Below, one piece after another: positions 1-52,181 of a stretch of 61,373 bases of DNA. Below the pieces are notes generated by a model. The model had not been told where the DNA came from. It ran no database searches and saw only the letters and a program-made list of their open reading frames with translations. Numbering within the stretch: the first letter of the stretch is position 1; each line of letters opens with the position of its first letter. The stretch comes from a virus: the UHGV virus genome UHGV-1597594. One strand, written 5' to 3'. The position numbers and the translations under genes are program-made.

Positions 1-132
1 TGATGCAAAGTACGATGTACACAACATGCATTGCATATTTGCAATGATGCAAAGTACGATGTACACAACATGCATTGCATATTTGCAATGATGCAAAGTA
101 CGATGTACACAACATGCATTGCATATTTGCAA
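1..132. repeat. 44-bp tandem direct repeat, 3 identical copies (array may continue upstream of the window)
   Basis: Unit tgatgcaaagtacgatgtacacaacatgcattgcatatttgcaa occurs at 1-44, 45-88 and 89-132; it contains the promoter-like tgtacacaaca box seen elsewhere in the window. Confidence 0.9.
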
Positions 133-1510: not shown

Positions 1511-3001
1511 TTATGCCTTTTTAGATTTGCGCTTTGCAGCAACTACGACTTCTGCTACGATAGCTTCTACAGTAGCTTCAGTTACAACAGACTTGTCTGC
1601 AACTTTTACAAGAGCTGCATGCAACTTGTAGTTGCCGACTTTGCTGAAAGTGCACATGAATTCTGTTGTTGCGTTGTATTCTGCAGGCACTGCAAAACCG
1701 CTGTCAGGACCCCATACACCAGTGTCTTCAAATGTCCAAGACTGTCCTTGTGAATCTGTTGCAGTAAATGTCGCATGACCATCTTCAGGCGCTTCTACGA
1801 TTTCATACTGCAGCTGAACGCCATCAACGCCAGCCTTGCCAACTACTTCAGTTGCAAGCGTTGCATTGATTGCTACTTCTGTTGCAGGCTGAATGCTTGC
1901 AGGGACATCTACAGAAATCTTGTATTCTGATACTTCAGGCTGAACTGGCTCAGCAACAACTACTGTAGACTCTGCTTCAACAACTACGCTGTCATCAGCA
2001 ACCTTGGCAAGAACTGCATGCAATTTGTACGTGCCAGCCTTGCTAAAGATTACAGTGAACTTTGTAGTTGCATTGTATTCTGCAGGAATGTCAAAGCCTG
2101 TTGCCGGCCCCCAAGTGCCATTGTCGACAAATGTATATTCCTTGCCAGCAGCGTCAGTAGCCTTGAATGTCACATGACCATCTTCAGGTGCTACGTCCAC
2201 GCCATAACGGAACTGAACCTTGTCAACGCCGACGTCGCCAACAGTCTTTGTTTTGAATGTCGCGTCAAGTTCAACTTCAGTGTTTTCGATGATTGTTTCA
2301 GGTGCAGACATTTCGAACTCATACTCAGACACTGTTTGTGCAGCTTGTTCAAGTTTGATGTTCTTTGTCTTGTTTGAAATCATAGTTTCACGACCAGCCT
2401 GGCTAACGTAGCCCTCTTTAGACACTTCCCAAACAATTTCTTCGCCTGACAAAACAGTCAACGAATTGCGAACTTCACCATTCATCTTGACAACTGCATC
2501 TGCAGGTTCTACATTGATTGTCAGTGTAGCTTTGCTGAGCTCAACAAGCTCCACTACTTGAATGACATCATGGTTTGTGAGCGTGATTGTGCCCTCCTGA
2601 GATTCATAACCCTCTTTCGACACTTCCCACTTAATTGGAATGCCTGCAGGCACGTTCTCAAGCATCTTTGTAGCCTCACCATTGATTTCTACGTAAGCAT
2701 CTTCAGGCACAGGCTGAATTGTGATGCTGAACTTATCTTTACCAGGTTCAGGGTCTGGTCCTGGTCCTGGGTCATCACCAGTAATTGCAGGGATAATTGT
2801 CTTTTCGATGACTTTCTGAGCTTCTGCAGTTGTGCCATAGAATTTGAGAGTTTTCTTGGCTTCTTCTACAGACATTTTCTCAAGATTGTCTGCAAGATAT
2901 GTCAGACCAGTGACTGCAGCAATTTTCTGCCGCATTTCTGGGCTAATGACTACACCAGTAGATTTGACCACTGGAGCAGCTTGTTTTTGCTTCTTTGCCA
3001 T
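1511..3001 (-). CDS. repeat-domain protein (Ig-like/PEGA-like repeats), possible virion surface or decoration protein
   Basis: ATG at 3001 (MAKKQKQ). Contains a Pro/Gly/Asp linker (GDDPGPGPDPEPG), two short repeats each containing WEVSKEGY, and two ~105-aa internally duplicated domains (..VAPEDGHVTFKATD..PAEYNATTKF.. / ..EAPEDGHATFTATD..PAEYNATTEF..). Function inferred from architecture only. Confidence 0.6.
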   Translation of the reverse strand: MAKKQKQAAPVVKSTGVVISPEMRQKIAAVTGLTYLADNLEKMSVEEAKKTLKFYGTTAEAQKVIEKTIIPAITGDDPGPGPDPEPGKDKFSITIQPVPEDAYVEINGEATKMLENVPAGIPIKWEVSKEGYESQEGTITLTNHDVIQVVELVELSKATLTINVEPADAVVKMNGEVRNSLTVLSGEEIVWEVSKEGYVSQAGRETMISNKTKNIKLEQAAQTVSEYEFEMSAPETIIENTEVELDATFKTKTVGDVGVDKVQFRYGVDVAPEDGHVTFKATDAAGKEYTFVDNGTWGPATGFDIPAEYNATTKFTVIFSKAGTYKLHAVLAKVADDSVVVEAESTVVVAEPVQPEVSEYKISVDVPASIQPATEVAINATLATEVVGKAGVDGVQLQYEIVEAPEDGHATFTATDSQGQSWTFEDTGVWGPDSGFAVPAEYNATTEFMCTFSKVGNYKLHAALVKVADKSVVTEATVEAIVAEVVVAAKRKSKKA

Positions 3002-3144
3002 AAGATATTGTGAATTTGGTTGTTATTCTTAACAAGATATGTACATACAGATGCAACAGATGATATGTCAGATGCACAAAACTGCATAAAATGACCAGAC
3101 TTGCAAATAAATTTAAGCAAGTCTGGTCATCAGTTTTGATTGCA

Positions 3145-4437
3145 CTACAACAATGACGGCACTCGTTGAGTTTCAAGTGGGTCACTGACATTGATGCCTG
3201 TGTATGCAACAAGTCGTTGTATTGGGCCAAGTACGAGTTTTTCGAACATGAGTCGTTTGTTCATTGGCGGCACATCTGGCATGTACTTCGGTGTCGGCAT
3301 TTCGCCTGGTGCAAAGCCAAATGCATCGCAATATTGACGAGAGCCAATTGGGATATTTGACAAATCTGACTTTGCTCTGTCAACAAAGTAGTAGAATACT
3401 CTACCGCCTTCAATCAATGGATATCGTGTTTCCAATCCATGAGCTTTTACAAGTGCATTATGGTATGCACAAGCCCTGTACTGAGGCAGTACACCTTTTG
3501 CTAACTGCCATTCACCGTCATAGCTTAGCACATAGTCATGATACTTGTTTGCATTGACATATGCGCAAAGTTTTTCCAAGTCTTGCTCAGCTTCAAAGCG
3601 TTTCCATAATTTCTGTATAAGCTTTGGATATGTCGCAGAAGTCAATTCGCCTCTGAACATTTTCTTAAATGCATAGTCAAGCATTTGTCTAACAAGCATT
3701 GATGAGCCTGTTTGAATAAGTTCGATGCCTTTGCCTTGAATGTGCTCAGTAGGGTCTTCGAATACTCGACCATCTACATATATTTGAGCCTTTAAGTACT
3801 TTTTCTTTTGGGCAAATAATGCAGTGTCAGAAATCGTTTCGAGGTCAAATAGCAAAATTGAATTGCCATGACGTTTTGCGAGGTATGCTGCATATGCCCC
3901 ATTGAATAATTCTTCCATACGATATTTGAATATCGCAAGAATCAAGTCATACCAATTTTTGCCTATGTAGCCAATTGATTTGACAGTTGGCTCAAAGTGA
4001 ATGTACAAAGAGTCTGTGTCAATATACAACACCTTGTCTTCATAGGGTTCGTGCTTTGGCGATACAGACAAATCAAAATTGTCCTTCAATTTGGGGTCAT
4101 TGCGCAGTTTTTCATGCAATTCATAATCACACCACCACTTGTTGTTAAGATAGTCATTTGCTACTCGTTCGCCAAAGTGAATGAAGTTACGCCCTTCAGC
4201 AGTAATTGATTCTGCAACTGCCATGTTAAAGAAGTGATAGAATCGATTACTTGTTGCACCATAGATTGAGTTTCGACAACATTTTGCTGAGACTTGCAGT
4301 CCTGCATGTTTTAGTGATTCTTGCATTGCAAAATCTCTCAATTCAAATAGACGTTCAGTAGACAACTGACTCAAATCACCAGTCAAATCTACCCCATCTA
4401 TTTCAATTTTTGACATATCTATCTGAGCTTCTGCCAT
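3145..4437 (-). CDS. family B DNA polymerase, C-terminal fragment (motifs B and C, KKKY motif)
   Basis: ATG at 4437. Translation contains KCCRNSIYG (motif B, KxxxNSxYG), YIDTDSLYI (motif C, YxDTDS) and QKKKYLK (KKRY-type motif). It lacks the exonuclease motifs and motif A, which are in CDS 7798-9303. Confidence 0.85.
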   Translation of the reverse strand: MAEAQIDMSKIEIDGVDLTGDLSQLSTERLFELRDFAMQESLKHAGLQVSAKCCRNSIYGATSNRFYHFFNMAVAESITAEGRNFIHFGERVANDYLNNKWWCDYELHEKLRNDPKLKDNFDLSVSPKHEPYEDKVLYIDTDSLYIHFEPTVKSIGYIGKNWYDLILAIFKYRMEELFNGAYAAYLAKRHGNSILLFDLETISDTALFAQKKKYLKAQIYVDGRVFEDPTEHIQGKGIELIQTGSSMLVRQMLDYAFKKMFRGELTSATYPKLIQKLWKRFEAEQDLEKLCAYVNANKYHDYVLSYDGEWQLAKGVLPQYRACAYHNALVKAHGLETRYPLIEGGRVFYYFVDRAKSDLSNIPIGSRQYCDAFGFAPGEMPTPKYMPDVPPMNKRLMFEKLVLGPIQRLVAYTGINVSDPLETQRVPSLL

Positions 4438-4459
4438 AAGTAGTTTATTTGTTTTGATT

Positions 4460-4617
4460 AAATTGTACTACATACATTGCAATTTTGCAATATGGGTTGT
4501 TAAAATGCACACATTGTACTACATGCAAAATGCTTTTGCATCATTTTGATACAACATGCAAAAACGAATTTGTACCGTTTTGATACAATGAATGCCAAGT
4601 TAAACTTTTGCATGACC
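4460..4617 (-). promoter_or_regulatory. cluster of 3-4 tandem promoter-like motifs upstream of the polymerase C-fragment gene
   Basis: aaattgtactacatacattgcaattttgcaa, acattgtactacatgcaaaatgcttttgcatc, ttttgatacaacatgca and ttttgatacaatgaatgcc...ttttgcat all resemble the recurrent tattgtacaaca-N12-ttgcac motif. Confidence 0.4.
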
Positions 4618-5562
4618 ACAGTCAAATACAGGATAAAATTGCCGTTGTATCATAGTATCTGCGTCAAAATTCTCATCAATGAGATGTTTATGCGTACGCC
4701 AATTATGCCAGTGTTTTTGAATTGTCTGCAAGTTATTTGATTTTTGCGGATTCAATGCAAAGTCTGTTGATAATACAGGTTCATTGTTCAAATGCGCTTG
4801 TATTGCTGCAATAACTGCTTCAACAGACATCCACTCAAATGCAGTCACACAAATAAAACCTGCACGCAATGCATCTTGAGTTTTGTAAAAGTGATATGTT
4901 GGATGAGTTGCTGCGCATTTTGATGCATTTTTGACAAGTGCATCAAAGCTTTTTGCGCTGTTATGCGACACTGTTGGATTGATTTCTACTACGACATTGT
5001 CATATCGCAAATCATACAACTTTAAGTCTATTCTGTAGTCATATTCAAAATTTATGCCAAGACGTTCAAATAGCAATGCATGCCAACGTTCATTAAGTTT
5101 TGACTGTATTTGACCAGATGCTGCTCTGCATTTTGCATGCATGCAAAAATACGGCACATCATATCGCTCTTCACATGTTTGACGCAACTTAGCAATGTTT
5201 GCAGGACCAAGCTTGCCAAAATGCTTAAGCTTAGTTGCATTTGCTTTGTCAGTATTGCTTGGACCTGCTTTGCCAAAATGTTCAAGCTTTGTCGCATTCG
5301 CTTTGTCAGTATTGCCTGGTCCAAGCTTGCCAAAATGTTTAAGCTTAGTCTGCTTGCATTGCTCTGTTACATGTGATAATTGCATATTGTGTTCTACACC
5401 ATATTTTCGTAACATTGCAATTCGCCTAATGTATTTTCTACGAATTTTGCTATGTGATGTCTTTCTTGACGCATATCTCACATATGGCGTACTTGCAATC
5501 AATGCATCTCGCTCGTTTTCAAGTTTAGCAATACGAGCATCAATCTCTTCTTTTGTCATCAT
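4600..5562 (-). CDS. homing-endonuclease-like protein (N-terminal coiled coil, 19-aa tandem repeats, PD-(D/E)xK/Vsr-like C-terminal region); paralog of 53489-54610
   Basis: ATG at 5562. Three repeats of TKL(K/E)HFGK(L/A)GPxNTDKANA; the C-terminal region YDLRYDNVVVEINPTVSHNS resembles the D..hhhE(I)xxxxxH core of Vsr/DUF559-type nucleases. Sits inside the split polymerase gene. Nuclease call is inference. Confidence 0.55.
   Translation of the reverse strand: MMTKEEIDARIAKLENERDALIASTPYVRYASRKTSHSKIRRKYIRRIAMLRKYGVEHNMQLSHVTEQCKQTKLKHFGKLGPGNTDKANATKLEHFGKAGPSNTDKANATKLKHFGKLGPANIAKLRQTCEERYDVPYFCMHAKCRAASGQIQSKLNERWHALLFERLGINFEYDYRIDLKLYDLRYDNVVVEINPTVSHNSAKSFDALVKNASKCAATHPTYHFYKTQDALRAGFICVTAFEWMSVEAVIAAIQAHLNNEPVLSTDFALNPQKSNNLQTIQKHWHNWRTHKHLIDENFDADTMIQRQFYPVFDCGHAKV
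5200..5360. repeat. ~57-bp tandem repeat (about 2.6 copies) inside CDS 4600-5562
   Basis: ccaagcttgccaaaatg(c/t)ttaagcttagt...tttgtcagtattgc(t/c)tgg recurs with a ~57-bp period; it encodes the 19-aa protein repeats. Confidence 0.8.
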
Positions 5563-5645
5563 AGCAATTCAAAAAATGCAGCAGCAGAACATCTGCTGCT
5601 GCATCGGCAGGTATCTTCACTTTTGTTTGAGTTGATTGCGATGTT

Positions 5646-6473
5646 TTAGAATGGCAGTTCACCATCGTCACCTGCGGCGTCAAATTCAGCTGCAATGTCA
5701 TATACCAGCGTCATTGCGATTCGCAAATCACGCTTCTTAGACTTCAGGCGCATGATATCATGACCAGAATTGTTTGTGATGACTGAACATTCAAACTCTT
5801 CATTGCCATCAATAAATGACAGCATTGATTTGTGAATTGTGATTGGCGACAAATCAGATGGGTAATTTGCGTCAATCACATATTCAAAGTTGTTGTTCTT
5901 GGCAATTAGTCCTCGTTCAGTCGTGCGAATCTCAATGCCAGGCAGCTCCTTGTCACCAGTGTTCAATGAGCCATACGATGACATGATGCCAAAGTGATTT
6001 GACGTCAAATCGAGCTTTCTCAGATTTGTTGTGCTATCAAACAACATTGACATATCATTATCAGACAGCTCAAAGTAGCCAAGTGATGGCATTGAACAAA
6101 CCTGATTGATTTTGAGCTGATTGTTTGAGATTACAATGAGCTCTGCAATTGTATCTGTGCCAATTTGTTTAACATAGATTTCAATCATTGCAGATGAGCC
6201 AAATGCAGCAAGTACTCGATTGTTGAATTGCGTGCCATTGTAAATAAACGCCTTGACTGTGACATCTTTGAGTGTAGACTCATAATGTTCACAAATGTCA
6301 AGCACATTAAGTGTCTGCGACTTTACAAAGCTACTATTGCCAGCATCAGTTCTGATTCGCTGGTCATTGAGTGAAAAGCTAAGCTTGCCATCGCATTTTA
6401 ATGATGATGCAAACAATGCTCGCAGCATATCAATGTTTGCATTGCGTAACGTAATTTTGTTCAGATTTTCCAT
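5646..6473 (-). CDS. hypothetical protein with acidic C-terminal tip DDGELPF (possible SSB-like or SSB-tip mimic)
   Basis: 275-aa ORF ending ..AAEFDAAGDDGELPF; the tip resembles the conserved bacterial SSB C-terminal D-D-D-I-P-F tip. No OB-fold could be verified by eye. Confidence 0.55.
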   Translation of the reverse strand: MENLNKITLRNANIDMLRALFASSLKCDGKLSFSLNDQRIRTDAGNSSFVKSQTLNVLDICEHYESTLKDVTVKAFIYNGTQFNNRVLAAFGSSAMIEIYVKQIGTDTIAELIVISNNQLKINQVCSMPSLGYFELSDNDMSMLFDSTTNLRKLDLTSNHFGIMSSYGSLNTGDKELPGIEIRTTERGLIAKNNNFEYVIDANYPSDLSPITIHKSMLSFIDGNEEFECSVITNNSGHDIMRLKSKKRDLRIAMTLVYDIAAEFDAAGDDGELPF

Positions 6474-6541
6474 CTTGTATCTATGTTGTTGATTTTCAAT
6501 TTAATATATTGAACAACATTTGTTGACATTTTGCAACATTG

Positions 6542-6916
6542 TCATCGATTGTCGCCTGACCCATGCAATACACCTCGCAATTTTCGAGACTGCAGTTTCT
6601 GAATGTTAAGCTGACAAATGTCAGTTAAGCTGTAGCCCAAATCATGTGCAAGAGTTGCAGCATACCACATGACATCGCTGAGCTCTTTTGCGATTTCATT
6701 GCGAATGTCTTCATTATCAAAATCACCATTCTTGTCTCGAATGACTTTTTTGACTTTGTCTGCAACTTCGCCTGCTTCACCCATTAAGCCAAGTGTTGGA
6801 TAGATAATTGCAGCTGATTTAGGATATACTGCGCTATCAAGCGCAGCAGTCTGATATTCATCAATAGTTGAAATCTGTGTGTGGTCGATTACGCCATGTG
6901 CATCTCGTTTAAGCAT
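6542..6916 (-). CDS. mazG: MazG-like nucleoside triphosphate pyrophosphohydrolase
   Basis: ATG at 6916. 124 aa with LMGEAGEVADKVKK and ELSDVMWY, the two glutamate-rich helices typical of the all-alpha MazG/NTP-PPase family. Confidence 0.75.
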   Translation of the reverse strand: MLKRDAHGVIDHTQISTIDEYQTAALDSAVYPKSAAIIYPTLGLMGEAGEVADKVKKVIRDKNGDFDNEDIRNEIAKELSDVMWYAATLAHDLGYSLTDICQLNIQKLQSRKLRGVLHGSGDNR

Positions 6917-6917
6917 A

Positions 6918-7409
6918 TCATTTACGTTTTTGTTTGACTCTCAATCGTTTTTGCATAAATGCTCTTGTAGCTTCACCAAAAGCCATCTCGTCTCGTTCGC
7001 CACCACAAAGCTTTGCAAGCTTATTGAATGTGTCTTGGTCAATCATTGTGTATGTTGAGTTGTTGACTACATGCAATGCGAACTGAATTAGCGGTGCGCC
7101 AGGCTGCAAGCAAAATGGCTCTTTGCCTGCATTGTACACTGCAAGATGAATCTCGCCATGATAGTCTGAATCTATAAACTCGCTTGTTTTGATAATGAGA
7201 TGATTTCGTGAAATGCCAGACTTATTGTAGGCAATCAATGCATGACCGGCAGGCACAAGTGCTTTAATGCCAGATGGAATTGCAATGCCCTCGCCAGGTT
7301 GCAGCATTGTTTGCACAAAATCATTGGGTATGCAAAAGTCCCATGCACCAGATTCTGCTGTTGACTTAAATGGACTTTCTACATTTCTGCATTTTGCAAA
7401 GAATAACAT
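6918..7409 (-). CDS. dut: dUTPase-family protein (dUTP/dCTP pyrophosphatase-like)
   Basis: ATG at 7409. EFIDSDYHGEI matches dUTPase motif III (IDxDYRGE); weaker matches to motif I (SGAWDF) and II (NKSGISR); motif V is degenerate. Confidence 0.7.
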   Translation of the reverse strand: MLFFAKCRNVESPFKSTAESGAWDFCIPNDFVQTMLQPGEGIAIPSGIKALVPAGHALIAYNKSGISRNHLIIKTSEFIDSDYHGEIHLAVYNAGKEPFCLQPGAPLIQFALHVVNNSTYTMIDQDTFNKLAKLCGGERDEMAFGEATRAFMQKRLRVKQKRK

Positions 7410-7432
7410 ATTAAGTATGTGTTTGTATGTTG

Positions 7433-7783
7433 TTAGTACATTTCTCGTTTAACAAGAGCTTTGCGTTTTGAGCGTAGCCCTGCCCTATTACGTAATTCTA
7501 CTGACCAATCACGAATCATTTGCCATGCAATCCCACCACGTTGAATACCACCGTGCTTGAACATTTCATTGCAAATACCTTGAATAAACACTGCATCAGA
7601 CTTTGTCAATGCATCAACAATTTGACCATGCGTATCTTCTGATTTGACATCATTGCAAAGCTTAAGCTCATCTACTGAAAGTTCGCCAAGCAGCTCATAG
7701 TAGTATATGAGAGCTTTGCGTGCGGCAATTGCTTTTCTTGAATTGCCAGAATAAGACAAAGTTACATGTTTGCTCATATTCAA
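7433..7783 (-). CDS. hypothetical protein
   Basis: 116-aa ORF tiling between dUTPase and polymerase N-fragment genes; no motif recognised. Confidence 0.5.
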   Translation of the reverse strand: MNMSKHVTLSYSGNSRKAIAARKALIYYYELLGELSVDELKLCNDVKSEDTHGQIVDALTKSDAVFIQGICNEMFKHGGIQRGGIAWQMIRDWSVELRNRAGLRSKRKALVKREMY

Positions 7784-7797
7784 TTATTGTTATGGTG

Positions 7798-9303
7798 TTA
7801 CAATTTGATTGCGCCTCTACGAGCAAGCTCTTCTTCAATCAATCGAACATGATTGTTAGCATACCAAAATTGCAATTTTTTGTGATAATTGCGAACGTTG
7901 CCAAGCTGTTCTTGAGTTTCTTTATACATTGAAGGCTCTCTGTTGTCATACAGACAATTGTTGACTGACACAAAGTAATTTGGGTCTGCTTTGTAATGCT
8001 CGATTTCATCAGGATTTGTTAAACGTCTAATAAAGTTGTCTGGTGAAATATTCGCCGAGCGCATACTTGACGGATACAACGAGTTTGCATCAACACAGAC
8101 AACCATACGAGCCCAATGGTTAAATGGTTGCTTAACAAAGCCGCCCTCAAATGAATGTACAACGTTCTCCGGCCCACCTTGAGCACATACAACTTTACCG
8201 CCATATTTGTTGTACAAATATGTCATCATGACGCCCTCAGATTGCTTAACTGGTCCTTGACAGTGATTCATGTCAATATTTGTCATATTTGACAATGACA
8301 TCACATTTGATATCAAGTCAGTTTTTGCAGCAATCATCGCATTGACCATCGTATCGACAGCATTATATGCAATGAATGTGCATGGATGATACAAATACAG
8401 CTCTTTAAGTGTGCAATCATAGGGTAGCTTACCTACACCAAACATGCGATGTGCAATATAGTCAAGTCGCAATGACTCTTTTTGCCACACTGAATAGTCG
8501 TATGTGTCCATGAGCTGCATGTAGTCATCAATGTACTTGTGGTATGGCATACCATTGCCCCAGACAGTTCTGCCAACTGGAGATGCCAATGCCAAATCAA
8601 TATTGTGCATTGCGCATCGATTTTTGACATAGATGTTATCGAAGCCATTGATGTTCCAGCCTGTCAATGCAGGAATGTTTTTGAAGAGCTTAGTCACCCA
8701 AAAATGCAACAATTCATGCTCATTTGCATGTTGAAAGATTTTGACAGTTGGATGTTCTTTCAAATACGCAGCAAAGCAATGTTGACCCATGTACTCTTGA
8801 ATGATGCCATTGACAAACTCAAATGCATCATCCAATGTTGGGTTTTGTTTGCCGCAGCTTTTGCGCAAATCATCATCATTCAACAAGTCAACAGTAGTCT
8901 GAATGACACAATTGCATTGTTCATCGCATGTACTTATTGCGTTGATAGGCATTTCAGCTTTGTCAGGCTTTGGAAAGCCATTGCCAATTTCAGTCTCAAT
9001 ATCGTAAAAGTACAACTTTGGTCTACGATAAGCAAACAATTCAGCTTTGTCAGCTTCAGGCAATTCAAATAAGAATTGCAGCAAGTCAAATTGATTGAAT
9101 CGTTTTGCTGTGACTCGAGTCACTGGCAATTTACGCCAATCTTGAATATCTGCATATTGAGGCTCTACGTGGTCTGATATTTGCCATACTGGAAATTGAT
9201 AAGGCTGTTCACAGACTGGGTATGTTTTGATGTCAATGCCACCTTGCTCATTAACATATGAGACTTCAATGCCATGTGACAAATATGCTACGTCAACAAT
9301 CAT
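7798..9303 (-). CDS. family B DNA polymerase, N-terminal fragment (3'-5' exonuclease domain + polymerase motif A)
   Basis: ATG at 9303. FYDIETE (Exo I), WNINGFD (Exo II), YNAVDTM (Exo III), VCVDANSLYPSS (motif A, DxxSLYPS). The ORF ends about 95 aa after motif A, without motifs B or C. Confidence 0.85.
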   Translation of the reverse strand: MIVDVAYLSHGIEVSYVNEQGGIDIKTYPVCEQPYQFPVWQISDHVEPQYADIQDWRKLPVTRVTAKRFNQFDLLQFLFELPEADKAELFAYRRPKLYFYDIETEIGNGFPKPDKAEMPINAISTCDEQCNCVIQTTVDLLNDDDLRKSCGKQNPTLDDAFEFVNGIIQEYMGQHCFAAYLKEHPTVKIFQHANEHELLHFWVTKLFKNIPALTGWNINGFDNIYVKNRCAMHNIDLALASPVGRTVWGNGMPYHKYIDDYMQLMDTYDYSVWQKESLRLDYIAHRMFGVGKLPYDCTLKELYLYHPCTFIAYNAVDTMVNAMIAAKTDLISNVMSLSNMTNIDMNHCQGPVKQSEGVMMTYLYNKYGGKVVCAQGGPENVVHSFEGGFVKQPFNHWARMVVCVDANSLYPSSMRSANISPDNFIRRLTNPDEIEHYKADPNYFVSVNNCLYDNREPSMYKETQEQLGNVRNYHKKLQFWYANNHVRLIEEELARRGAIKL

Positions 9304-9320
9304 ATATCATTATCTTTTTT

Positions 9321-9731
9321 TTAGAATAGAGATATTGTACAACAATTTGATTCAGGTTGCCATTCTACAATATGCGCATCAAAGTGTTTATTAAGCCAAT
9401 GTGCAAGTATGTGTCTATGACAAAATGCAGATGGCCTGCACCAGCATAACAATACAATATCTCTTTCGCCAGCAAGAATCTTTATGCGATGCAACATCAA
9501 ACTTATCTGTGACAATGCAGCGTCAAGTTTTGCAGTGTATTGTTCTGCATATTGTGCATTATCAAGCAAGCCTACTTTATGCAAACGAACAAGTGACATG
9601 TAATCAGGCATGACGTCAATCCATATAAAATCTGCTACGAAACCCTTGGGTTTTGTTGCAGACACTTGAACAAGAAATGCATTGTCAGGCAACTGTCTGC
9701 ATGCATAATATGAAGTCAAGATTCTTGTCAT
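9321..9731 (-). CDS. hypothetical protein
   Basis: ATG at 9731; 136 aa. Its last codons (NCCTIS) overlap the promoter-like box for the polymerase gene. Confidence 0.5.
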   Translation of the reverse strand: MTRILTSYYACRQLPDNAFLVQVSATKPKGFVADFIWIDVMPDYMSLVRLHKVGLLDNAQYAEQYTAKLDAALSQISLMLHRIKILAGERDIVLLCWCRPSAFCHRHILAHWLNKHFDAHIVEWQPESNCCTISLF

Positions 9732-11383: not shown

Positions 11384-11589
11384 CTTATTTATGATTTGAT
11401 GTCTTGTATTTATATTATATGTTGATATTGTACAACGCTAAGTGTCATTTTGCACTGTCGCCACCAATTTTTATTGATGGTGTTGCAAACAATGCAAGCA
11501 AACACCAGCCACTTTTAGTGACTGCACAAGCAACTGCTATTGCAGCAAAGAAGCTTGCATAAATGATTGCTGCAGCAAGCCAACTTGTT

Positions 11590-11886
11590 TTATCGCTGCA
11601 TTTGTTGTTCGATAAGTTCTCCATTGATAATGTCTTGTCTAATGTATACGCCCTTTAATGTTGGATGCTGCTTTATGAGTGTCATATGACCGATGACATG
11701 CACTTTGTGATTTTTAGACAACACAATGCCATGTTCAAATACAGCATGAGTATCTGTAAATCGCAGCAATTTTACTGCAGGCGCAATGCAATTGACAAAG
11801 TACAATTTACCAATTTGCGCATCTGCTGCTTTAATTTTGTCTTTCATTGTTATGCAATTTGAGTGCTGGCGTATTTTATGAGCCAA
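11590..11886 (-). CDS. hypothetical protein
   Basis: 98-aa ORF; no motif. Confidence 0.4.
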   Translation of the reverse strand: MAHKIRQHSNCITMKDKIKAADAQIGKLYFVNCIAPAVKLLRFTDTHAVFEHGIVLSKNHKVHVIGHMTLIKQHPTLKGVYIRQDIINGELIEQQMQR

Positions 11887-12134
11887 GCATACACGTCATA
11901 GTGAAAAATCTTCACATAATGCGGCATACTAAAGCATTCACCACAACTGCAATGAGCATCAATGTTGCCTGTAATGACATTATACGTTAGCCGAACAATT
12001 TCATATGACTCAGAGCCCATTTGACAATGCTGCTTAATGTCAATTGTTCTGCCAAATCGCTTACGAAACCATATCACAAGTTGTACATACAAATCATCAA
12101 TGTTTGATGTCATTGAGCAGTCTTTCATATGCAT
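11850..12134 (-). CDS. hypothetical protein (Cys-rich)
   Basis: 94-aa ORF with CSCGEC; no further assignment. Confidence 0.4.
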   Translation of the reverse strand: MHMKDCSMTSNIDDLYVQLVIWFRKRFGRTIDIKQHCQMGSESYEIVRLTYNVITGNIDAHCSCGECFSMPHYVKIFHYDVYAWLIKYASTQIA

Positions 12135-12600
12135 ACGGATAATCAGGATTTGTTAGCAAACGCTTAATAAACTGTTTGAGTGCAAATTTGCTATCAAATG
12201 ATTGAACTGCAGGCCTACCAACAAATTTGAGATATTTGATTGCTTCTTTAGCAAATTTGCCTGCAGCATTGTCATCGAGCATTATGTATGATGTCAAAGT
12301 GTCAATCATAAAAATGCTTCGCCAGCTTGGTGCGCCACAAACAACTTCTACTGCATTTCTGTTAGGAATGCGTCGTACACGCACATTAAGAATAGTCATC
12401 AAGTCATTCCAAGATGCATCTCTGCATGTACATGGCTGCAAATTCCACTGACGTGTCATATGACACCAATATAGAATCGTGTTTACAGGCAATTCTGCTC
12501 GTTCAGTCTTGCTAAGTCTATGACCATCTGCTGCATAGACAGCTTGTCTGCTAATTTGAACAGAGCTAAGCTTGCCTCGTTTGTGCGTAACTGCTACCAT
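12097..12600 (-). CDS. hypothetical protein
   Basis: 167-aa ORF; no motif. Confidence 0.5.
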   Translation of the reverse strand: MVAVTHKRGKLSSVQISRQAVYAADGHRLSKTERAELPVNTILYWCHMTRQWNLQPCTCRDASWNDLMTILNVRVRRIPNRNAVEVVCGAPSWRSIFMIDTLTSYIMLDDNAAGKFAKEAIKYLKFVGRPAVQSFDSKFALKQFIKRLLTNPDYPYAYERLLNDIKH

Positions 12601-12992
12601 GTCTTTGCGTAGTTAATGAGCTGCTTAATATCAAAGAATGCAGGATTGTCGTACGCAGACTTGTTGTAATCGAAGATGACACAAATGTTGTTGCCAAGCA
12701 ATCTGCAGTTGCCATAGATTTTTGCAATCTTTGTGTTACGTTTCTTGTCAACGCAAATATTGATTGCTCGTACTTTCATGACATCAAGCCACTGACCAGT
12801 GTATTCATTCTGAACTGCAGATGGTTCACAAGTTGGCAATGCAAGCACATATGTCTTACCACTGTCAAGTCGTTCAATAACTTCGCCATGATATCGAGGT
12901 TCAAGAATGTTGATGCCATTAACATCAGGATTTGCTGTTCGTAATGCAACTTTCAATTCTTCTGTAGTTGCGTTGTAGTTTATTCTTTGCAT
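12594..12992 (-). CDS. hypothetical protein
   Basis: 132-aa ORF; no motif. Confidence 0.5.
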   Translation of the reverse strand: MQRINYNATTEELKVALRTANPDVNGINILEPRYHGEVIERLDSGKTYVLALPTCEPSAVQNEYTGQWLDVMKVRAINICVDKKRNTKIAKIYGNCRLLGNNICVIFDYNKSAYDNPAFFDIKQLINYAKTW

Positions 12993-24481: not shown

Positions 24482-25747
24482 TTACCGATATTTGATGTGC
24501 CATGGCCGCATAAATACGCATACATTGATGTAGTTTGCATACACATATCGAAGCATTGCAACTGCATTGCTGACATCACTTACTGCAGCAGGCTCATAAT
24601 TTGCATGGCCGCCAATCTTAGCATTCAAAGCATCACGAGTAATTGGTGCAAGACTCCCATTTCTGAGTTCAGGCCATAACTGCGCTGCAAGTGATGCATT
24701 GTTTACAATGGCTTGCTTATGAAAGATTGCATTTTCTCGTGCGTTCTTTTTGCAATTTGACTGCCACATGCCATACACAAAGTATGGCTGATGCATAACC
24801 ACACAATTGCCTGACAGCTGCAAAATTGCATGCACAAAGTCAATTGCGGTGTCTGCGTCAAGACCCTTTGTTTTGCAATCATTGTAATCGATATTGTACA
24901 GCTTCAGCCACTCTGCATCGAACAACTCATATGGGTCATTGATGTAAATGTGCTTGAACCATAGCAATTCTGCATCAGAAGACATCACTGCAATATCTAC
25001 TTGTGCAATACGCTGCCAATCATTGTCAAATATGCTGCTTGGGATGTTGTCATGCTTTGCGCCACTGTAGCATGTCATTGCTGCTGTGCAATGCAACATT
25101 GGCCAAACTTGAAGCCGCTTGCAACATTCAGCAAATACATCTGCGCATGCATTGACATCAGCAAGAGCATCATGAGCGGATTCAAAGTCATGACCGAACA
25201 AACCTCGATAAGCATCGACAAGTCTTGCAGACCCATTGCTCAAATGCTTTGCAAAGCCTTTGTACAGAAACTTTGTGTCAATGACAGAGTATTGAGTCAT
25301 GAAGTTTGCAGTTTTGCAACGCTGACATTCATAATCGAGAATCGTCAAGTCATATGGTGCATTGTGTGCAATAAGATGCGTTACACCAAAACGTTCCAAG
25401 TCAAGTCTGAACTGGTCAAGCACTTTTTGCATAGGCTCTCCATGTTCATACAACTGCTCCATAGTATGGCCATGCACTGCAAGAGCTTCTGCTGGCATAT
25501 CATCAAAACTGTTGTTGAATCTGCCAAGCGGCATTACAAGCATATTGTTTCGATGCAGTTCTATAATGTTGCCCGCATAATCAAGTCTGAAGATTTTGTA
25601 TGCAAGCTGAACTACAAATGACATCTCTCGCAAATCAATGACATCTTGCTTATGATAGTAGTCAACTGCTAAGCCTGTCGATTCAACGTCTATACATGCG
25701 CATACCAGCTCTGTGATATGCTCTTTGCTTTTATTGATATGCTCCAT
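24482..25747 (-). CDS. DnaQ-like DEDDh 3'-5' exonuclease domain protein
   Basis: ATG at 25747. CACIDVESTGL (Exo I), HNAPYDLTILD (Exo II), SAHDALADV (Exo III, HxxxxD). Confidence 0.7.
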   Translation of the reverse strand: MEHINKSKEHITELVCACIDVESTGLAVDYYHKQDVIDLREMSFVVQLAYKIFRLDYAGNIIELHRNNMLVMPLGRFNNSFDDMPAEALAVHGHTMEQLYEHGEPMQKVLDQFRLDLERFGVTHLIAHNAPYDLTILDYECQRCKTANFMTQYSVIDTKFLYKGFAKHLSNGSARLVDAYRGLFGHDFESAHDALADVNACADVFAECCKRLQVWPMLHCTAAMTCYSGAKHDNIPSSIFDNDWQRIAQVDIAVMSSDAELLWFKHIYINDPYELFDAEWLKLYNIDYNDCKTKGLDADTAIDFVHAILQLSGNCVVMHQPYFVYGMWQSNCKKNARENAIFHKQAIVNNASLAAQLWPELRNGSLAPITRDALNAKIGGHANYEPAAVSDVSNAVAMLRYVYANYINVCVFMRPWHIKYR

Positions 25748-26909: not shown

Positions 26910-27968
26910 TTATTGCTTCAAGCCTGTGAACAGTTCATACTTGAATGCCGGCGCTGCTGCGTAATCCTCAAAGTAGAAGTCACCAATGTTGATGCTAGCA
27001 ATAGCGTCATCGACTGCTTTCTTGTAGCCTACGCGTTCAATTGTCTGCTTATCGCATTTACGCCAATATGTGCTGTGCATCATAAGTGTGGGTGATGCAG
27101 CATAGTCTACTGCAAGCTGTTGTTTTGCAGTGTCAATGTGATGTTCATAGATGTGCACATCATTGCCAGTCCAAATGAACTCTCTTGCCACACAGTTAGT
27201 CAATGTTGCAACAATATGTGTAAGCAATGCATATGATGCGATATTGATGGGCACACCAAGACACATGTCACAGCTACGTTGAGTAAGCGCACAGTCAAGC
27301 CACATGCTTGGTACTTGAGCAGAATCAAGGCATTCTGCAGAGCCATCATGCACAAGCATGCTATCATTAGCAATCTGAATTCGTTCTTCAAGAGTCATTG
27401 GCTGACAATTGAACTGAAACAGCATATGACATGGCGGCAATGCCATCTGAGACATTTGCGCAGGATTCCATGCAGACACGACTTTGTAGCGGCCAGTTGG
27501 ATTGATGACAATGTCTTTAATGCAAGTTGCAAGTTGGTCAAATCCACTGTCATTGAAGTTGCGCCACTGATACCCATAGATAGGTCCGCAATCACCATAC
27601 TCAGGCTTGCTGAATTTTGTGTTATGCAGTTCTGTGCACCAAGTTTCAAAGTCGACATCTTCACCTGGATGCAGTTTACGCCAATGACGATATGCATCCT
27701 GATGCCAGAACTTTGTAATGCCAAGCGTGTCAAGCGTTTTTACATTTGTATCACCTGACATAAACCACAGAAGTTCTCCAATGACACCCTTGACAAACAT
27801 TCTCTTAGATGTTAACAGTGGAAAGCCTTTACGCAAATCAAATCGCATTGATTCTACGAACAGTGACTTTGTGCGAGGCATGTTTTCACGAGCAGGCTCC
27901 TTAAATCTGCCATGCTCAATAACATTGTTAAGTACTCTCAAGTACTCAGTGTCGTGTTTGATATTCAT
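26910..27968 (-). CDS. thyA: thymidylate synthase (ThyA family, uracil-type active site)
   Basis: ATG at 27968. ALPPCHMLFQF (catalytic Cys motif) and QRSCDMCLGVPINIASYALLTHIVA, retaining the Asn of PxNIAS that specifies dUMP in ThyA. 352 aa, with a ~40-aa insertion relative to bacterial ThyA. Confidence 0.8.
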   Translation of the reverse strand: MNIKHDTEYLRVLNNVIEHGRFKEPARENMPRTKSLFVESMRFDLRKGFPLLTSKRMFVKGVIGELLWFMSGDTNVKTLDTLGITKFWHQDAYRHWRKLHPGEDVDFETWCTELHNTKFSKPEYGDCGPIYGYQWRNFNDSGFDQLATCIKDIVINPTGRYKVVSAWNPAQMSQMALPPCHMLFQFNCQPMTLEERIQIANDSMLVHDGSAECLDSAQVPSMWLDCALTQRSCDMCLGVPINIASYALLTHIVATLTNCVAREFIWTGNDVHIYEHHIDTAKQQLAVDYAASPTLMMHSTYWRKCDKQTIERVGYKKAVDDAIASINIGDFYFEDYAAAPAFKYELFTGLKQ

Positions 27969-31166: not shown

Positions 31167-32048
31167 CTATCGTTTGAATTTGATGAAGTGTTCAGCATCA
31201 AGGCCCTCGAATACATACGGGTCAAGAGTTTCCCAGAAGTTTGAGTATGTCGTTGTCTTTGCAATGCTTGTTTGCTTTGACAAGTTCATATTTGGGTAGC
31301 CAAGCATTGCATAGTGTCGCTCATATATGTGCATTGACGTCGCATTATGCACATATGCGCCAAGCTTAAGACCAAGTTCATTTGCGACAAGTTCTTGCAA
31401 CAAAGTGAATGCAAACTGGTCGTTACAGAAGCCCCAAATGACATCATTGCTTCGCATGTATGTTGTCAAGTACAGCTTATCACCACGAACATTAAAGACA
31501 AGATTCAATGTGCATGGCATGTCTTTGCCAGTGTAGTTTGCATATTGTGGCTCATAAATGCTAATAACTGCTCGTCTTGTGCATTCATGATTTCGCAAAC
31601 GTTCAATGACATCTGCAATCTGCTTATGCCAAATTGCACCATACTGCGAATTGACATTGACATCATCATCACTGAACTGCTTCCAGCGAGGCAAATAACG
31701 TTCAATGCATTCAACTGCAGGATTGGCTGTCATGTACCATGCAAATTCTGCTGCAGCATTGAGCTTTTTCCATGGTCGTACATCAATCTTGATTTGTCGC
31801 TGTGAAGGGTCCTGAATAACTACAGACACATTCAGCAATTCTTTTGTTCGAGTCACTGTTTGTGCATTGTTGCCCTTTGATTCTACAAACTCACCTCTAC
31901 AATGAAGTTCATACAAAATTGAGCGAAATGCTTCTGTTGCAGTGTTTTCAATGATTGTCGTCTGTTGATAACATAAATTTGACGACAATGATTCAGCATC
32001 ATTGTACTTTATGCTGTCATTGTTATAAGGTGAATTTTTTGTGTGCAT
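31167..32048 (-). CDS. ThyA-family pyrimidine hydroxymethylase-like enzyme (candidate dCMP hydroxymethylase)
   Basis: ATG at 32048. MPCTLNLVF (catalytic Cys region) and YMRSNDVIWGFCNDQFAFTLL align gap-free with ThyA RSCDVFLGLPFNIASYALL; Asp replaces the specificity Asn. Confidence 0.7.
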   Translation of the reverse strand: MHTKNSPYNNDSIKYNDAESLSSNLCYQQTTIIENTATEAFRSILYELHCRGEFVESKGNNAQTVTRTKELLNVSVVIQDPSQRQIKIDVRPWKKLNAAAEFAWYMTANPAVECIERYLPRWKQFSDDDVNVNSQYGAIWHKQIADVIERLRNHECTRRAVISIYEPQYANYTGKDMPCTLNLVFNVRGDKLYLTTYMRSNDVIWGFCNDQFAFTLLQELVANELGLKLGAYVHNATSMHIYERHYAMLGYPNMNLSKQTSIAKTTTYSNFWETLDPYVFEGLDAEHFIKFKR

Positions 32049-37903: not shown

Positions 37904-39132
37904 GACTTTATGTACAATTCTGCAAGTTGTCTGGTGTACAGTCGTGGATTATGATATGCTTTCCAATATGCAGTAGACTTTATTGCAGCAAGAATCTCAT
38001 CATAATGTTTGACTGCTTCTGCTACAACTTCATCAAGCACGCTCAAATCTTCTACACTGACAAGCAACCATTTTTCTACAATATCAATGAACTCCTGATT
38101 GCAATTGAAGCCATACTTGTAGTTGCAAGTGTCAAGTACAAGTGGAATGCAATCATTTGTCAATGCTTCAAAAAATCTACGAAGACTGAAACAATTCTCA
38201 TCATATGATGGAATGCTTAATGTAAACTTGGCAGTCTTGATGAGTTGCAAATACTCTTCATATGGAATCAGAGGACCATTGTGCTTCCACTGATTGTTAT
38301 GTCGTCTTGTTGTGTACTTGAACAAAAACTTTGAACTGTCAAGCTCACAAAGATGGTCCATGCGTAAAATGTAGTTATAGCGGTCTCTTCTATCAGGCCA
38401 ACTGTCAGTCATTGCAAACACAAAGTCTCTTTGCTTGTCACATTTTGCTGACATGCCTCTATGCTGACACATGCAATACCAATATTGCTGTGATGGACTG
38501 AACTCGAATTTTGAGTGATGTTCGCTTCCATCTTTGCATTGTTGAACGTAAATATTGTCAGGCACAAAGTGAAAATAGAAGTGTCGAATTTGCAAGCCGT
38601 CAATGTAGTCAAGCTTATGCTGCAATGGGTCTTCACAGAAATTGTAACATTGAATGTGCTTTACTGCTGCATACTCAGCAACTATGAATGTGCACATCCA
38701 TTGCAATGCAATATCTTCACTTTTCAAAAAGTCTACAAGCGGTTCGTTTGGATGCGCTTTGCATTCATTGAACATTTTGTACCACTTGCACTGCTCCATA
38801 TCGTACTTTGAGACTGTATTGCCATTAAAGAATGACACAGTGTCAATTTTGAATGCATCAAGCTGTTTATGCACAATGTCAAGTGCTTGTGCATATGTGA
38901 TTGTCTCATCAGACATTATCTGCGCAAACTTGATTGGATATGCATGCAAATTTGCGATAGTGTCTGCTGACATTTTACGCTGTGTATGATAATCGACATA
39001 CAAAAACTGACATTTATCTGTAAGCAATTCAAGCATTGCTACAGATTTCCATCGAATTGCTTGAAAGAAATTGAAGTGCGCAGTTTGAAAAATGAGATGC
39101 GTAGGCTTGTCAGAATGAGTCAAAGTTTGCAT
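37900..39132 (-). CDS. GT-B-fold glycosyltransferase-like protein (paralog X1)
   Basis: ATG at 39132 (track start 39138 is TTG). C-terminal PSYDENCFSLRRFFEALTNDCIPLV fits the GT-B/GT4 signature PSxxExxxxxxxxEAxxxGxPxV; EDPLQHKLDYIDG and SPSQQYWY are shared with CDS 42133-43689. Confidence 0.6.
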   Translation of the reverse strand: MQTLTHSDKPTHLIFQTAHFNFFQAIRWKSVAMLELLTDKCQFLYVDYHTQRKMSADTIANLHAYPIKFAQIMSDETITYAQALDIVHKQLDAFKIDTVSFFNGNTVSKYDMEQCKWYKMFNECKAHPNEPLVDFLKSEDIALQWMCTFIVAEYAAVKHIQCYNFCEDPLQHKLDYIDGLQIRHFYFHFVPDNIYVQQCKDGSEHHSKFEFSPSQQYWYCMCQHRGMSAKCDKQRDFVFAMTDSWPDRRDRYNYILRMDHLCELDSSKFLFKYTTRRHNNQWKHNGPLIPYEEYLQLIKTAKFTLSIPSYDENCFSLRRFFEALTNDCIPLVLDTCNYKYGFNCNQEFIDIVEKWLLVSVEDLSVLDEVVAEAVKHYDEILAAIKSTAYWKAYHNPRLYTRQLAELYIKS

Positions 39133-52125: not shown

Positions 52126-52142
52126 GACATGACTTGTTAAAT

Positions 52143-52181
52143 GAAAAAGAGGCTCAGACAAACAATGTCTGTCTGAGCCTC
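52143..52181 (-). terminator. intrinsic terminator downstream of CDS 52207-53337
   Basis: Perfect 12-bp stem gaggctcagaca/tgtctgagcctc with 9-nt loop; A-run 52143-52148 gives a T-run on the minus transcript. Confidence 0.65.

Follow-up and report, generated by a model that had tools for sequence, protein, structure and literature searches.

A family-B DNA polymerase split at the fingertip, with a predicted sliding clamp gene between its halves, in virus genome UHGV-1597594

Described split polymerases and the locus of the window

Split forms of the polymerase gp43 have been described in relatives of phage T4. Work by Petrov et al. (2006, 2010), summarized in PMC3061061 and PMC2988022, places a break at the fingertip in Aeromonas phages 25, 31, 44RR and 65 and in Acinetobacter phage 133, with a gap of 2 bp to ~3 kb between the two ORFs. 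In phage 133, eight ORFs lie in the 2.9 kb between the gp43 halves. The gp43A and gp43B proteins of Aeromonas phage 25 co-purify and are active (PMC2988022), and a fingertip-split Pfu polymerase assembles 1:1, keeps wild-type kinetics (PMC3061061) and has a broadened substrate range. In Methanothermobacter, PolB is broken in the palm and not in the fingers (Kelman et al. 1999, cited in PMC3061061). In the 'fractured genes' (Dassa et al. 2009, PMC2677866; MIJ3, PMC6892783), an essential replication gene lies in two ORFs with a Vsr-fold endonuclease between them.

We analyzed a polymerase locus of the window, by which we mean the whole 61,373-nucleotide stretch of DNA. The preliminary description of this DNA had mentioned split gp43 genes with inserted DNA in T4 relatives, in agreement with the literature (PMC3061061, PMC2988022; phage 133). 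Like the bicistronic gp43 genes, the window has its break in the fingertip loop (T4 residues ~505-510; 510 in the 44RR-like Asfd_1), two independently translated ORFs and no intein. Like phage 25, it has a free-standing homing endonuclease at the junction, which is seg-like in phage 25 (PMC2988022) and Vsr/EDxHD-like in the window. The window differs in that the interval between its halves contains the polymerase's own predicted clamp gene together with dUTPase and MazG genes, whereas T4-like gene 45 is upstream of gene 43, and in that its halves are apparently transcribed as separate units. The split Pfu is artificial and bicistronic with coupled translation, unlike the window. The 'fractured genes' share the two ORFs and the Vsr-fold endonuclease, but the window has no intein halves, hence no protein ligation, and four other genes lie between its endonuclease and the N-half.

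A fingertip split with intervening genes is therefore already published, and the window adds a lineage outside the T4-like Straboviridae. Its nearest relatives are Sphingomonas phage PAU (gp105/gp110), Tenacibaculum phages pT24 and PTm1 and Chryseobacterium phages MA9V-1 and MA9V-2, whose halves are homologous to those of the window (26-36% identity) and broken at the same point, and whose C-half directly follows the same clamp gene; the interval of PAU also includes a dUTPase. Selfish genes occupy the same slots in two of them (TnpB in MA9V-2, a DUF7487 gene in PTm1), and the other interval content varies. The C-half of PTm1 is further fractured by a split intein and a VSR endonuclease, unlike that of the window. 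Our literature search found no paper treating the PAU, pT24, PTm1 or MA9V loci as split polymerases. Two ORFs are named 'DNA polymerase' in the MA9V-1 paper with no further remark, and among the clamp genes of these phages only PAU gp109 is identified as a clamp in the literature (PMC4889955). The two 'DNA polymerase' ORFs of PAU-like phages should count as one enzyme.

The two halves and the enzyme they would form

An ORF check of the window recovered all seven minus-strand ORFs of the locus, the two halves and the five genes between them, where they had been placed before. The halves are as follows.

7798-9303, minus strand: N-terminal half of the family-B polymerase (PolN), 501 aa, with the N-terminal domain, the 3'-5' exonuclease (Exo I-III), palm motif A and the first finger helix
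3145-4437, minus strand: C-terminal half (PolC), 430 aa, with the second finger helix and motif B, palm motif C, KKKY and the thumb

The preliminary description had assigned the exonuclease motifs and motif A to the first ORF and motifs B, C and KKKY to the second, and had read them as one PolB split between motifs A and B. Both claims held. PolN contains FYDIETE (Exo I), NINGFD (Exo II), YNAVD (Exo III) and VDANSLYPS (motif A), and PolC contains KCCRNSIYG (motif B), YIDTDS (motif C) and QKKKY. In HMM searches, PolN matched Pfam DNA_pol_B_exo1 (E 1.9e-12), positions 111-489 of 856 in the full-length polymerase family phrog_262, and the N-half-only family phrog_2062 (E 1e-61). PolC matched DNA_pol_B positions 153-354 (E 3.4e-15), phrog_262 positions 504-842, and the C-half-only family phrog_1918 (E 3.3e-47). 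The Pfam and PHROG coordinates of the two halves are complementary, and both halves match the T4/RB69 gp43 structures. PolN ends in ...EEELARRGAIKL, at about residue 505 of T4 gp43; when the concatenated halves are aligned with T4-like gp43 by MAFFT, its last residue falls on residue 505, in the loop that joins the two finger helices, which confirms the split point at the fingertip. On the same T4-like numbering, the aligned N-halves end at 510 in Aeromonas 43A, 508 in PAU and 505 in MA9V and pT24.

PolN and PolC have their nearest relatives in common (MA9V, 36% and 34% identity; PAU, 28.5% and 26.4%). Compared with the close relative L010, dN/dS was 0.007 for PolN, 0.045 for PolC and 0.065 for the predicted clamp gene, and both halves were free of stops in the three relatives compared. 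PolN and PolC are one T4-gp43-like family-B polymerase, and both are under strong purifying selection.

Precedent and selection suggest that PolN and PolC probably work as a two-polypeptide enzyme. We propose a non-covalent 1:1 assembly, since the same was shown for gp43A/gp43B of phage 25 and for split Pfu. PolN provides the N-terminal and proofreading exonuclease domains together with motif A of the palm and the first of the finger helices; the second, with motif B, comes from PolC, as do motif C, KKKY, the thumb and the C-terminal tail. The antiparallel finger helices, one per chain, would pack together, and both chains would contribute strands to complete the palm sheet. The C-terminal tail of gp43 binds the clamp, and PolC ends in a hydrophobic C-terminal tail (...RVPSLL).

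Genes and expression signals between the halves

The five genes between the halves, already counted in the preliminary description and found again as ORFs and families, are listed in the direction of transcription.

7433-7777, minus strand: small conserved hypothetical protein, 114 aa from ATG 7777 or 116 aa from TTG 7783
6918-7409, minus strand: dUTPase-like protein, 163 aa (Pfam dUTPase 2.2e-11; phrog_135)
6542-6916, minus strand: MazG-like nucleotide pyrophosphohydrolase, 124 aa (Pfam MazG 9.5e-09; phrog_229 1.3e-35)
5646-6473, minus strand: predicted sliding clamp, gp45/PCNA-like, 275 aa, acidic C-terminal tail ending in ...DDGELPF
4600-5562, minus strand: free-standing homing-endonuclease-like gene, 320 aa, DUF7487, Vsr/I-Bth0305I-like

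The small hypothetical protein had no family match in the Pfam and PHROG searches; it is kept in the relatives L008, L010 and L011 with dN/dS of 0.02-0.12. A dUTPase gene is also located between the halves in PAU, L009, L016 and L017, and one relative has a ribonucleotide reductase gene there. The space between PolN and the clamp-PolC pair gathers nucleotide-pool genes and selfish genes.

The fourth gene had been called hypothetical, a label that we replace. Its product and PAU gp109, a gp45-like clamp by profile search (PMC4889955), are members of one family, and this 275-aa family is directly upstream of PolC in nine loci from across the split-PolB clade (PAU, pT24, PTm1, MA9V-1, MA9V-2 and the metagenomic contigs L009, L016, L017 and L019). 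On its homology to PAU gp109 and its position beside PolC, we identify it as the predicted sliding clamp of the polymerase, and the family should be named so in annotation. Profile-profile comparison with gp45 gave a weak match (E 1.2e-3, probability 19%), and the second domain of the structure model has low confidence (pLDDT <50). The tail is SSB-like (DDxELPF). No clamp loader (gp44/gp62-like) was recognized among the window ORFs scanned, whereas PAU and MA9V-1 encode one.

The 320-aa protein is homing-endonuclease-like, as described before, by its DUF7487 match and its fold. Three N-terminal helical repeats (KLKHFGKxGPxN) are followed by a C-terminal nuclease domain of Vsr/I-Bth0305I-like fold. 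The EDxHD residues are only partly recognizable, with invariant D184, H200, N201, H224 and K227 and E or D at 192; the last Asp is not conserved. The I-Bth0305I/EDxHD enzymes, including the phage Hef-type (PMC3239194), gave no sequence-level match, the Pfam assignment being DUF7487, and they are intron- or intein-borne whereas the window endonuclease is free-standing.

The expression signals of the locus are the following.

9334-9362, minus strand: promoter-like element of PolN, TGGCAA-N17-TACAAT, extended TGTTGTACAAT, ending 30 nt before ATG 9303
6508-6536, minus strand: promoter-like element of the predicted clamp gene, same class, TTGCAA-N17-TTCAAT
4462-4541, minus strand: two tandem promoter-like elements of PolC, ATGCAA-N17-TACAAT (4541-4513) and TTGCAA-N17-TACAAT (4490-4462), the proximal one ending 24 nt before ATG 4437
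5575-5605, minus strand: intrinsic-terminator-like hairpin and U-run after the predicted clamp gene (dG -23.9 kcal/mol, z -5.9)
3094-3128, minus strand: terminator-like hairpin with a 15-bp stem and U-rich tail, just after the PolC stop (dG -25.1 kcal/mol, z -8.0)

The reported cluster of promoter-like motifs is a real enrichment, with TGT(A/T)GTACAAT occurring 10 times against 2.2 expected. At the level of consensus, PolN, the predicted clamp gene and PolC are predicted to share one sigma-70-like promoter class. The genes from PolN to the clamp would form one transcription unit, inside which another predicted promoter of the class precedes the clamp gene. PolC would be a separate unit, co-regulated through the shared promoter type. 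The hairpin after the clamp gene is kept in L010 and L011.

Insertion of the endonuclease gene and age of the split

The endonuclease gene is part of a discrete insertion.

4502-5572, minus strand: 1.07-kb insertion containing the endonuclease ORF and an extra promoter-like copy at its 3' end

The 8-bp sequence TGCATTTT is found at both ends. L010 and L011, whose modules are ~95-97% identical in nucleotide sequence to that of the window, lack the insertion but retain the same split and the other four interval genes, and empty-site relatives have a single promoter-like copy before PolC. In L008, a paralog takes the place of the endonuclease gene and the split is retained. In L011, a further DUF7487 gene follows immediately on the PolN stop, and the window has a DUF7487 paralog at 53489-54610, beside a gp32-like SSB gene. 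The family thus behaves as mobile genes do, with presence or absence at a fixed site and multiple copies, and the endonuclease gene is the only mobile gene of the window's interval. It is a recent arrival, placed precisely between the predicted terminator of the clamp gene and the predicted promoter of PolC, and brings a spare promoter copy. Because the endonuclease is missing from L010 and L011 and replaced by a paralog in L008, all of which keep the split, the split predates it. Free-standing phage homing endonucleases typically exploit junctions next to essential conserved genes. The endonuclease of the window likewise exploits the junction beside such a gene and did not create the split.

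The locus as a whole is best explained, and with good confidence, by an old and clade-wide split within a T4-type replication module that later received the endonuclease, the age being judged from synteny and a crude neighbour-joining tree. The module would belong to a ~175 kb T4-type phage related to PAU and MA9V, with PolN and the clamp-PolC pair as its conserved core. The nine loci with the clamp family upstream of PolC all have the split layout. All 53 PolC homologs in the database are stand-alone proteins of 376-573 aa, and among the best 150 PolN representatives, 100 are 400-600 aa long and without the PolC region. The split has persisted through deep divergence, the halves still standing alone at ~27% identity, and the clamp gene is consistently wedged between them. 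Split and unsplit forms are interspersed in the tree, in which repeated splitting and re-fusion are not separable.

The preliminary description had instead proposed that a contiguous polB was broken when the homing endonuclease drove a 3.4-kb mobile cassette into it. Its mobile endonuclease stands, and such a gene does sit between the halves; DUF7487 genes, TnpB and a Vsr endonuclease are found at the same junctions in L008, L011, PTm1 and MA9V-2, and insertion elements at the gp43 fingertip are discussed by Petrov et al., as relayed in PMC2988022 and PMC3061061. The cassette as a unit does not stand. L010 and L011 keep the split without the endonuclease, the slot holds no endonuclease in the split loci of MA9V-1, PAU, pT24, L009, L016, L017 and L019, the clamp is conserved beside PolC even where the C-halves are only 26-52% identical, and the interval has neither a single set of boundaries nor a uniform composition. 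The 3.4-kb interval is a composite and not one mobile cassette, and we consider the cassette origin unlikely. The split long predates the endonuclease, and its cause is not readable from the window's locus; an older, unrelated insertion may have been the original cause.

Rejoining of the halves after expression, through a split intein, splicing in trans or in cis, or excision of DNA, would be conceivable from related phages in which split inteins with a Vsr-type endonuclease fracture polB (PTm1 gp239/gp240/gp241; MIJ3, PMC6892783). PTm1 gp239 matches Pfam Intein_splicing (E 9e-08), whereas PolN and PolC of the window do not. The PolN end and the PolC start both align to the gp43 fingertip with nothing extra, and the 931 aa of the halves (501 + 430) against 898 aa of T4-like gp43 leave no room for an intein. 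No HN+Cys/Ser/Thr splice junction was found between the halves and no group I/II intron in an Rfam E-value scan, in line with the earlier view that this is neither an intein nor a simple intron. The interval also has its own promoter-like elements, a terminator-like hairpin and the essential clamp gene, and no recombinase gene. Rejoining is very improbable. It is likewise hard to believe that one or both fragments are decaying remnants in a phage replicated by another polymerase. The window has another polymerase-related gene (phrog_192 'DNA polymerase exonuclease subunit', 24482-25747), and a minimal split Pol III alpha is reported in jumbo phages of the group (PMC7824862), but every catalytic motif of PolN and PolC is intact, their dN/dS is low, their frames are open in the relatives and both have promoter-like elements of the class used by other genes. 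An assembly artefact of the metagenomic contig is scarcely credible; the close matches to the window are all metagenome-derived, but the gene order is repeated in independent Logan, ENA, JGI and IMG/VR assemblies and in five sequenced cultured phages.

The old, clade-wide split could be an adaptive feature and not a tolerated scar, a reading that we regard as doubtful. A break at the fingertip could loosen nucleotide selection and let the enzyme take up the phage's own modified dNTPs. This is hinted at by genes in the window for two thymidylate-synthase-like enzymes, a dCMP deaminase and a glucosyltransferase-like protein, by the heavily modified DNA of PAU and by the substrate range of split Pfu. 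If true, the nested clamp gene could enforce co-expression and a distinct holoenzyme architecture, and the same split in unrelated phage lineages would reflect convergent selection, not a shared permissive site.

The locus is a clean comparative example of fingertip-split family-B polymerases, and the split junctions are landing pads for Vsr-like endonucleases, TnpB and split inteins. The near-identical empty, occupied and swapped sites provide a ready system for studying the turnover of free-standing homing endonucleases beside an essential gene. Divergence is mosaic beside the insertion sites, which is only suggestive of cleavage of the endonuclease-free allele.

Two halves of one family-B DNA polymerase

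The locus at 3145-9303 holds seven minus-strand ORFs in succession. ORF 7798-9303 (PolN, 501 aa) gave a Pfam match to DNA_pol_B_exo1 (E 1.9e-12) and PHROG matches to positions 111-489 of phrog_262, the full-length phage PolB family with 856 positions, and to phrog_2062 (E 1e-61), whose 502-position profile has the size of an N-half. ORF 3145-4437 (PolC, 430 aa) matches positions 153-354 of Pfam DNA_pol_B (E 3.4e-15), positions 504-842 of phrog_262, and phrog_1918 (E 3.3e-47), a profile of 382 positions and thus of C-half size. The PolN translation contains Exo I-III and motif A (VDANSLYPS), and the PolC translation contains motif B (KCCRNSIYG), motif C (YIDTDS) and QKKKY. Each half also matches the T4 and RB69 gp43 crystal structures. 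The preliminary description had read these two ORFs as one PolB and proposed HMM searches on each fragment; those searches, together with the motifs and the gp43 structures, support this far beyond chance.

The break had been expected between motifs A and B, and it lies there. We aligned the concatenated window halves with a T4-like gp43 (898 aa) and the halves of five other phages. In this alignment, T4 residue 505 is the end point of PolN and of the N-halves of MA9V-1, MA9V-2 and pT24; the N-half of PAU ends at residue 508, and that of Asfd_1, a 44RR-like Aeromonas phage annotated as having a "split DNA polymerase", at residue 510. With the fingers-domain boundaries that we take from established knowledge of RB69 gp43, the break is in a variable loop at the fingers-domain tip, between two finger helices. 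The split site is likewise assigned to the fingertip in PMC3061061. The T4-like phages 133, 44RR, 31, 25 and 65 are among the carriers of fingertip-split gp43 described there, with ORF spacings of 2 bp to ~3 kb. We checked phage 133 and found 43A (506 aa), eight small ORFs over 2.9 kb, and 43B (392 aa). The arrangement in the window is therefore already known in kind and is found here in a different phage lineage. It differs from the T4-like split gp43 in the clamp gene nested between the halves and in an endonuclease that is Vsr-like rather than seg-like.

A split intein and an intron were considered as other readings of the two ORFs and rejected. The two halves together have 931 aa, which leaves no room for ~135 aa of split intein. 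Neither half has an intein Pfam match, whereas the positive control, PTm1 gp239, gives one, and the halves align to gp43. The Rfam scan returned no group I or II intron at E <= 1. The length sum and both scans thus agree with the earlier view that this is not an intein or a simple intron.

Both genes are intact and under selection. In comparison with the close relative L010 (~95-98% identical), dN/dS is 0.007 for PolN (1 non-synonymous versus 31 synonymous changes), 0.045 for PolC, 0.065 for the 275-aa ORF 5646-6473 and 0.016 for the dUTPase, and no stop codons were found in these genes across three relatives. Judged from these substitutions, PolN and PolC appear to be functional genes. The window thus encodes two intact, selected and separate halves of one PolB, with a clamp gene between them and a polymorphic endonuclease gene. 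By published precedent, the halves would assemble non-covalently into an active polymerase. For Aeromonas phage 25, PMC2988022 describes co-purification of gp43A and gp43B with polymerase activity present, and a Pfu polymerase with a fingertip split assembled 1:1 and had wild-type kinetics (PMC3061061). The last residues of PolC form a short hydrophobic tail (…RVPSLL; …LPALI, …NTLF and …TSLF in relatives), placed where gp43 has its clamp-binding tail, and the PolC tail may bind the clamp.

Megablast comparison of the region with 50,697 phage records gave zero matches, so there is no close cultured relative. The nearest sequenced phages have the same layout already in GenBank. The literature searched contained no treatment of their loci as split polymerases, and the MA9V-1 paper gives the two polymerase ORFs without comment. 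PTm1 (L006, 3175-9502) differs in having PolB in three pieces, in the order N-half gp236, clamp gp237, DUF7487 gp238, middle piece gp239, VSR endonuclease gp240 and C-terminal piece gp241. The middle piece ends in an N-intein, and PTm1 PolB combines a fingertip split and a "fractured gene" split in one enzyme.

The split is widespread. In a 5.8-billion-protein database, all 53 PolC homologues stand alone as proteins of 376-573 aa, and two carry inteins. The 150 best PolN cluster representatives include 100 that have 400-600 aa and lack a PolC-like region and 40 that carry such a region in the same chain. In the huge phages LR756500 and Lak-B1, a C-half fragment is about 10 kb from the N-half. 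The halves in LR756504.1 (uncultured huge phage, 636 kb) are at 255869-257329 and 538025-539116, on opposite strands with about 280 kb between them. Linkage between split halves is not a requirement. A crude neighbour-joining tree places the window/MA9V clade next to the PAU/PTm1/pT24 clade, both uniformly split; elsewhere on it, split and unsplit forms are interspersed. Parsimony on this tree gives at least 22 split/unsplit changes, a figure too crude to count independent events.

A composite interval with a sliding clamp gene

Pfam, PHROGs and NCBIfam gave no match for the 275-aa ORF 5646-6473, and its family alignment (A1), used as the profile for a PDB search, gave none either. In the AlphaFold2 model of the protein, the N-terminal domain is confidently predicted, with a beta-alpha-beta-beta-beta x2 topology, and the C-terminal domain is poorly modelled; a profile-profile comparison with gp45 gave a weak match. 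Homologues in syntenic positions are PAU gp109, pT24 gp167, PTm1 gp237 and MA9V1_137. We call it a sliding clamp because of the structure prediction and the literature on the PAU homologue, which Kazlauskas et al. assigned as a gp45-like clamp (PMC4889955). In all relatives examined, the C-half has the clamp gene directly upstream of it, both in cultured phages (PAU, pT24, PTm1, MA9V-1 and MA9V-2) and in metagenomic contigs (L009, L016, L017, L018 and L019, with C-halves 28-52% identical to PolC). In L018 and L019, PolC starts one or two bases after the clamp gene ends.

The clamp has an acidic C-terminal tail, ...DDGELPF (window 5646-5670), with DDDDLPF and DDDELPF as counterparts in L009, L016 and L017 and ...DENPLF in pT24. 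A close counterpart is the DDDIPF tip of bacterial SSB, through which many partner proteins are recruited. Sliding clamps do not usually carry a tail of this kind. It could recruit host or phage proteins that bind SSB tails.

The dUTPase between the halves is also found in PAU, L009, L016 and L017, and the L019 interval has a ribonucleotide reductase in its place. Between the halves, MazG was found only among the window's own close relatives. What separates the halves is a composite rather than a cassette. The preliminary description was right about the split PolB, the homing-endonuclease-like gene and the precedent in T4 relatives, but its single mobile 3.4-kb cassette does not hold: the clamp-PolC order is conserved, and only the endonuclease is demonstrably mobile.

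Mobility of the endonuclease gene

The sole demonstrably mobile part of the interval, the 320-aa ORF 4600-5562, belongs to Pfam DUF7487. The C-terminal domain of its AlphaFold2 model superposes best on three structures. The protein shares with the EDxHD family (PMC3239194) the order of N-terminal repeats followed by the nuclease, and the EDxHD catalytic signature is only partly recognisable. The earlier reading of the gene as homing-endonuclease-like is supported.

In the IMG/VR contigs L010 and L011, a 1,071-bp segment (window ~5572-4502) is absent, and one promoter-like element and then the start of PolC come directly after the clamp terminator hairpin. The same slot in L008 holds another paralog of the DUF7487 family, with 382 aa, 37% identity and only the first ~57 codons in common. 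PTm1 has a DUF7487 gene there, and MA9V-2 (L002) has a TnpB-family RNA-guided endonuclease gene (8007-9173), which is absent from its sister MA9V-1. A 356-aa MA9V-1 gene between the halves was considered as a relative of the window endonuclease and is unrelated. The endonuclease-free relatives keep the split and the other four genes; therefore the endonuclease did not create the split. These comparisons mark it as a recent, polymorphic passenger.

The 1.07-kb insertion is bounded by identical 8-bp TGCATTTT repeats (window 4502-4509 and 5573-5580), of which the empty-site relatives have one copy. These may be recombination microhomology, or a coincidence, since the 8 bp form the terminator 3' arm and U-run. 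L011 has a further DUF7487 gene (399 aa, 11515-12714) immediately 3' of the PolN stop codon. Beside it, the final ~400 nt of PolN are 65-84% identical in nucleotides between the window and L011, compared with >96% upstream, and protein identity over the same stretch (window 7900-8200, motif A onward) is 87%. A mosaic of this kind is expected around homing sites but is only suggestive, and the stretch could be a co-conversion or target-immunity tract.

Another DUF7487 paralog (53489-54610, minus strand, 373 aa), 37% identical to the 4600-5562 gene, is followed immediately downstream by the genes for a gp32-like SSB (52207-53337) and a helicase (50530-52161). Here again, a selfish gene neighbours an essential replication gene.

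Predicted transcription and other features

The promoter-like motifs reported earlier in the interval stand as predicted elements of one enriched class. The sigma-70-like TTGCAA-N17-TACAAT, often TGTTGTACAAT, has 69 matches (<=2 mismatches) in the window versus 31 expected, and its extended -10 form has 10 versus 2.2. Copies lie 24-60 nt upstream of many start codons on the gene strand. The enrichment is limited to this class; a generic sigma-70 scan showed none over shuffles (27 found versus 22 expected).

Predicted transcription elements of the locus
9362-9334, minus strand: promoter-like element preceding PolN
6536-6508, minus strand: promoter-like element preceding the clamp gene
4541-4513 and 4490-4462, minus strand: two tandem promoter-like elements preceding PolC
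5575-5605, 3' of the clamp gene: strong hairpin with U-tail, dG -23.9, z -5.9
3094-3128, 3' of PolC: strong hairpin with U-tail, dG -25.1, z -8.0

The distal PolC copy (4541-4513) is within the inserted segment. These predictions likely define a PolN-to-clamp transcription unit, with an additional promoter of this type ahead of the clamp gene, that ends at a terminator; the endonuclease, likely with no obvious promoter of its own, would follow, and then a separate PolC unit. A 48-nt stretch (4513-4560) matches L008 7957-8004, which is roughly window 27-74 by collinearity. The 29-nt TTGCAATGATGCAAAGTACGATGTACACA occurs twice at the window start, at 39-67 and 83-111 (plus strand), 44 nt apart. 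Almost all window genes are on the minus strand, and throughout the window start codons have A/T-rich leaders without a Shine-Dalgarno-like sequence (e.g. 4438-4461, 6474-6490 and 9304-9333).

Elsewhere, the window has two thymidylate-synthase-family genes (26910-27968 and 31167-32048), a dCMP deaminase gene (44827-45552) and a beta-glucosyltransferase-like gene (39120-40295). Together with the dUTPase and MazG, these four genes suggest a pathway for hypermodified-base DNA. PAU DNA is reported to be heavily modified (PMC7824862). A 421-aa protein (24482-25747, minus strand) matches phrog_192, "DNA polymerase exonuclease subunit", and a DUF488-N3a/DUF4326-like protein is encoded immediately upstream of PolN (9321-9731, minus strand). 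Just downstream of PolC, the gene at 1511-3001 (minus strand) encodes 496 aa with two Head_fiber_dimeric domains; head fibres are known from PTm1-type phages. This gene contains an internal ~240-nt duplication (1596-1843 versus 1995-2230) with ~70% identity.
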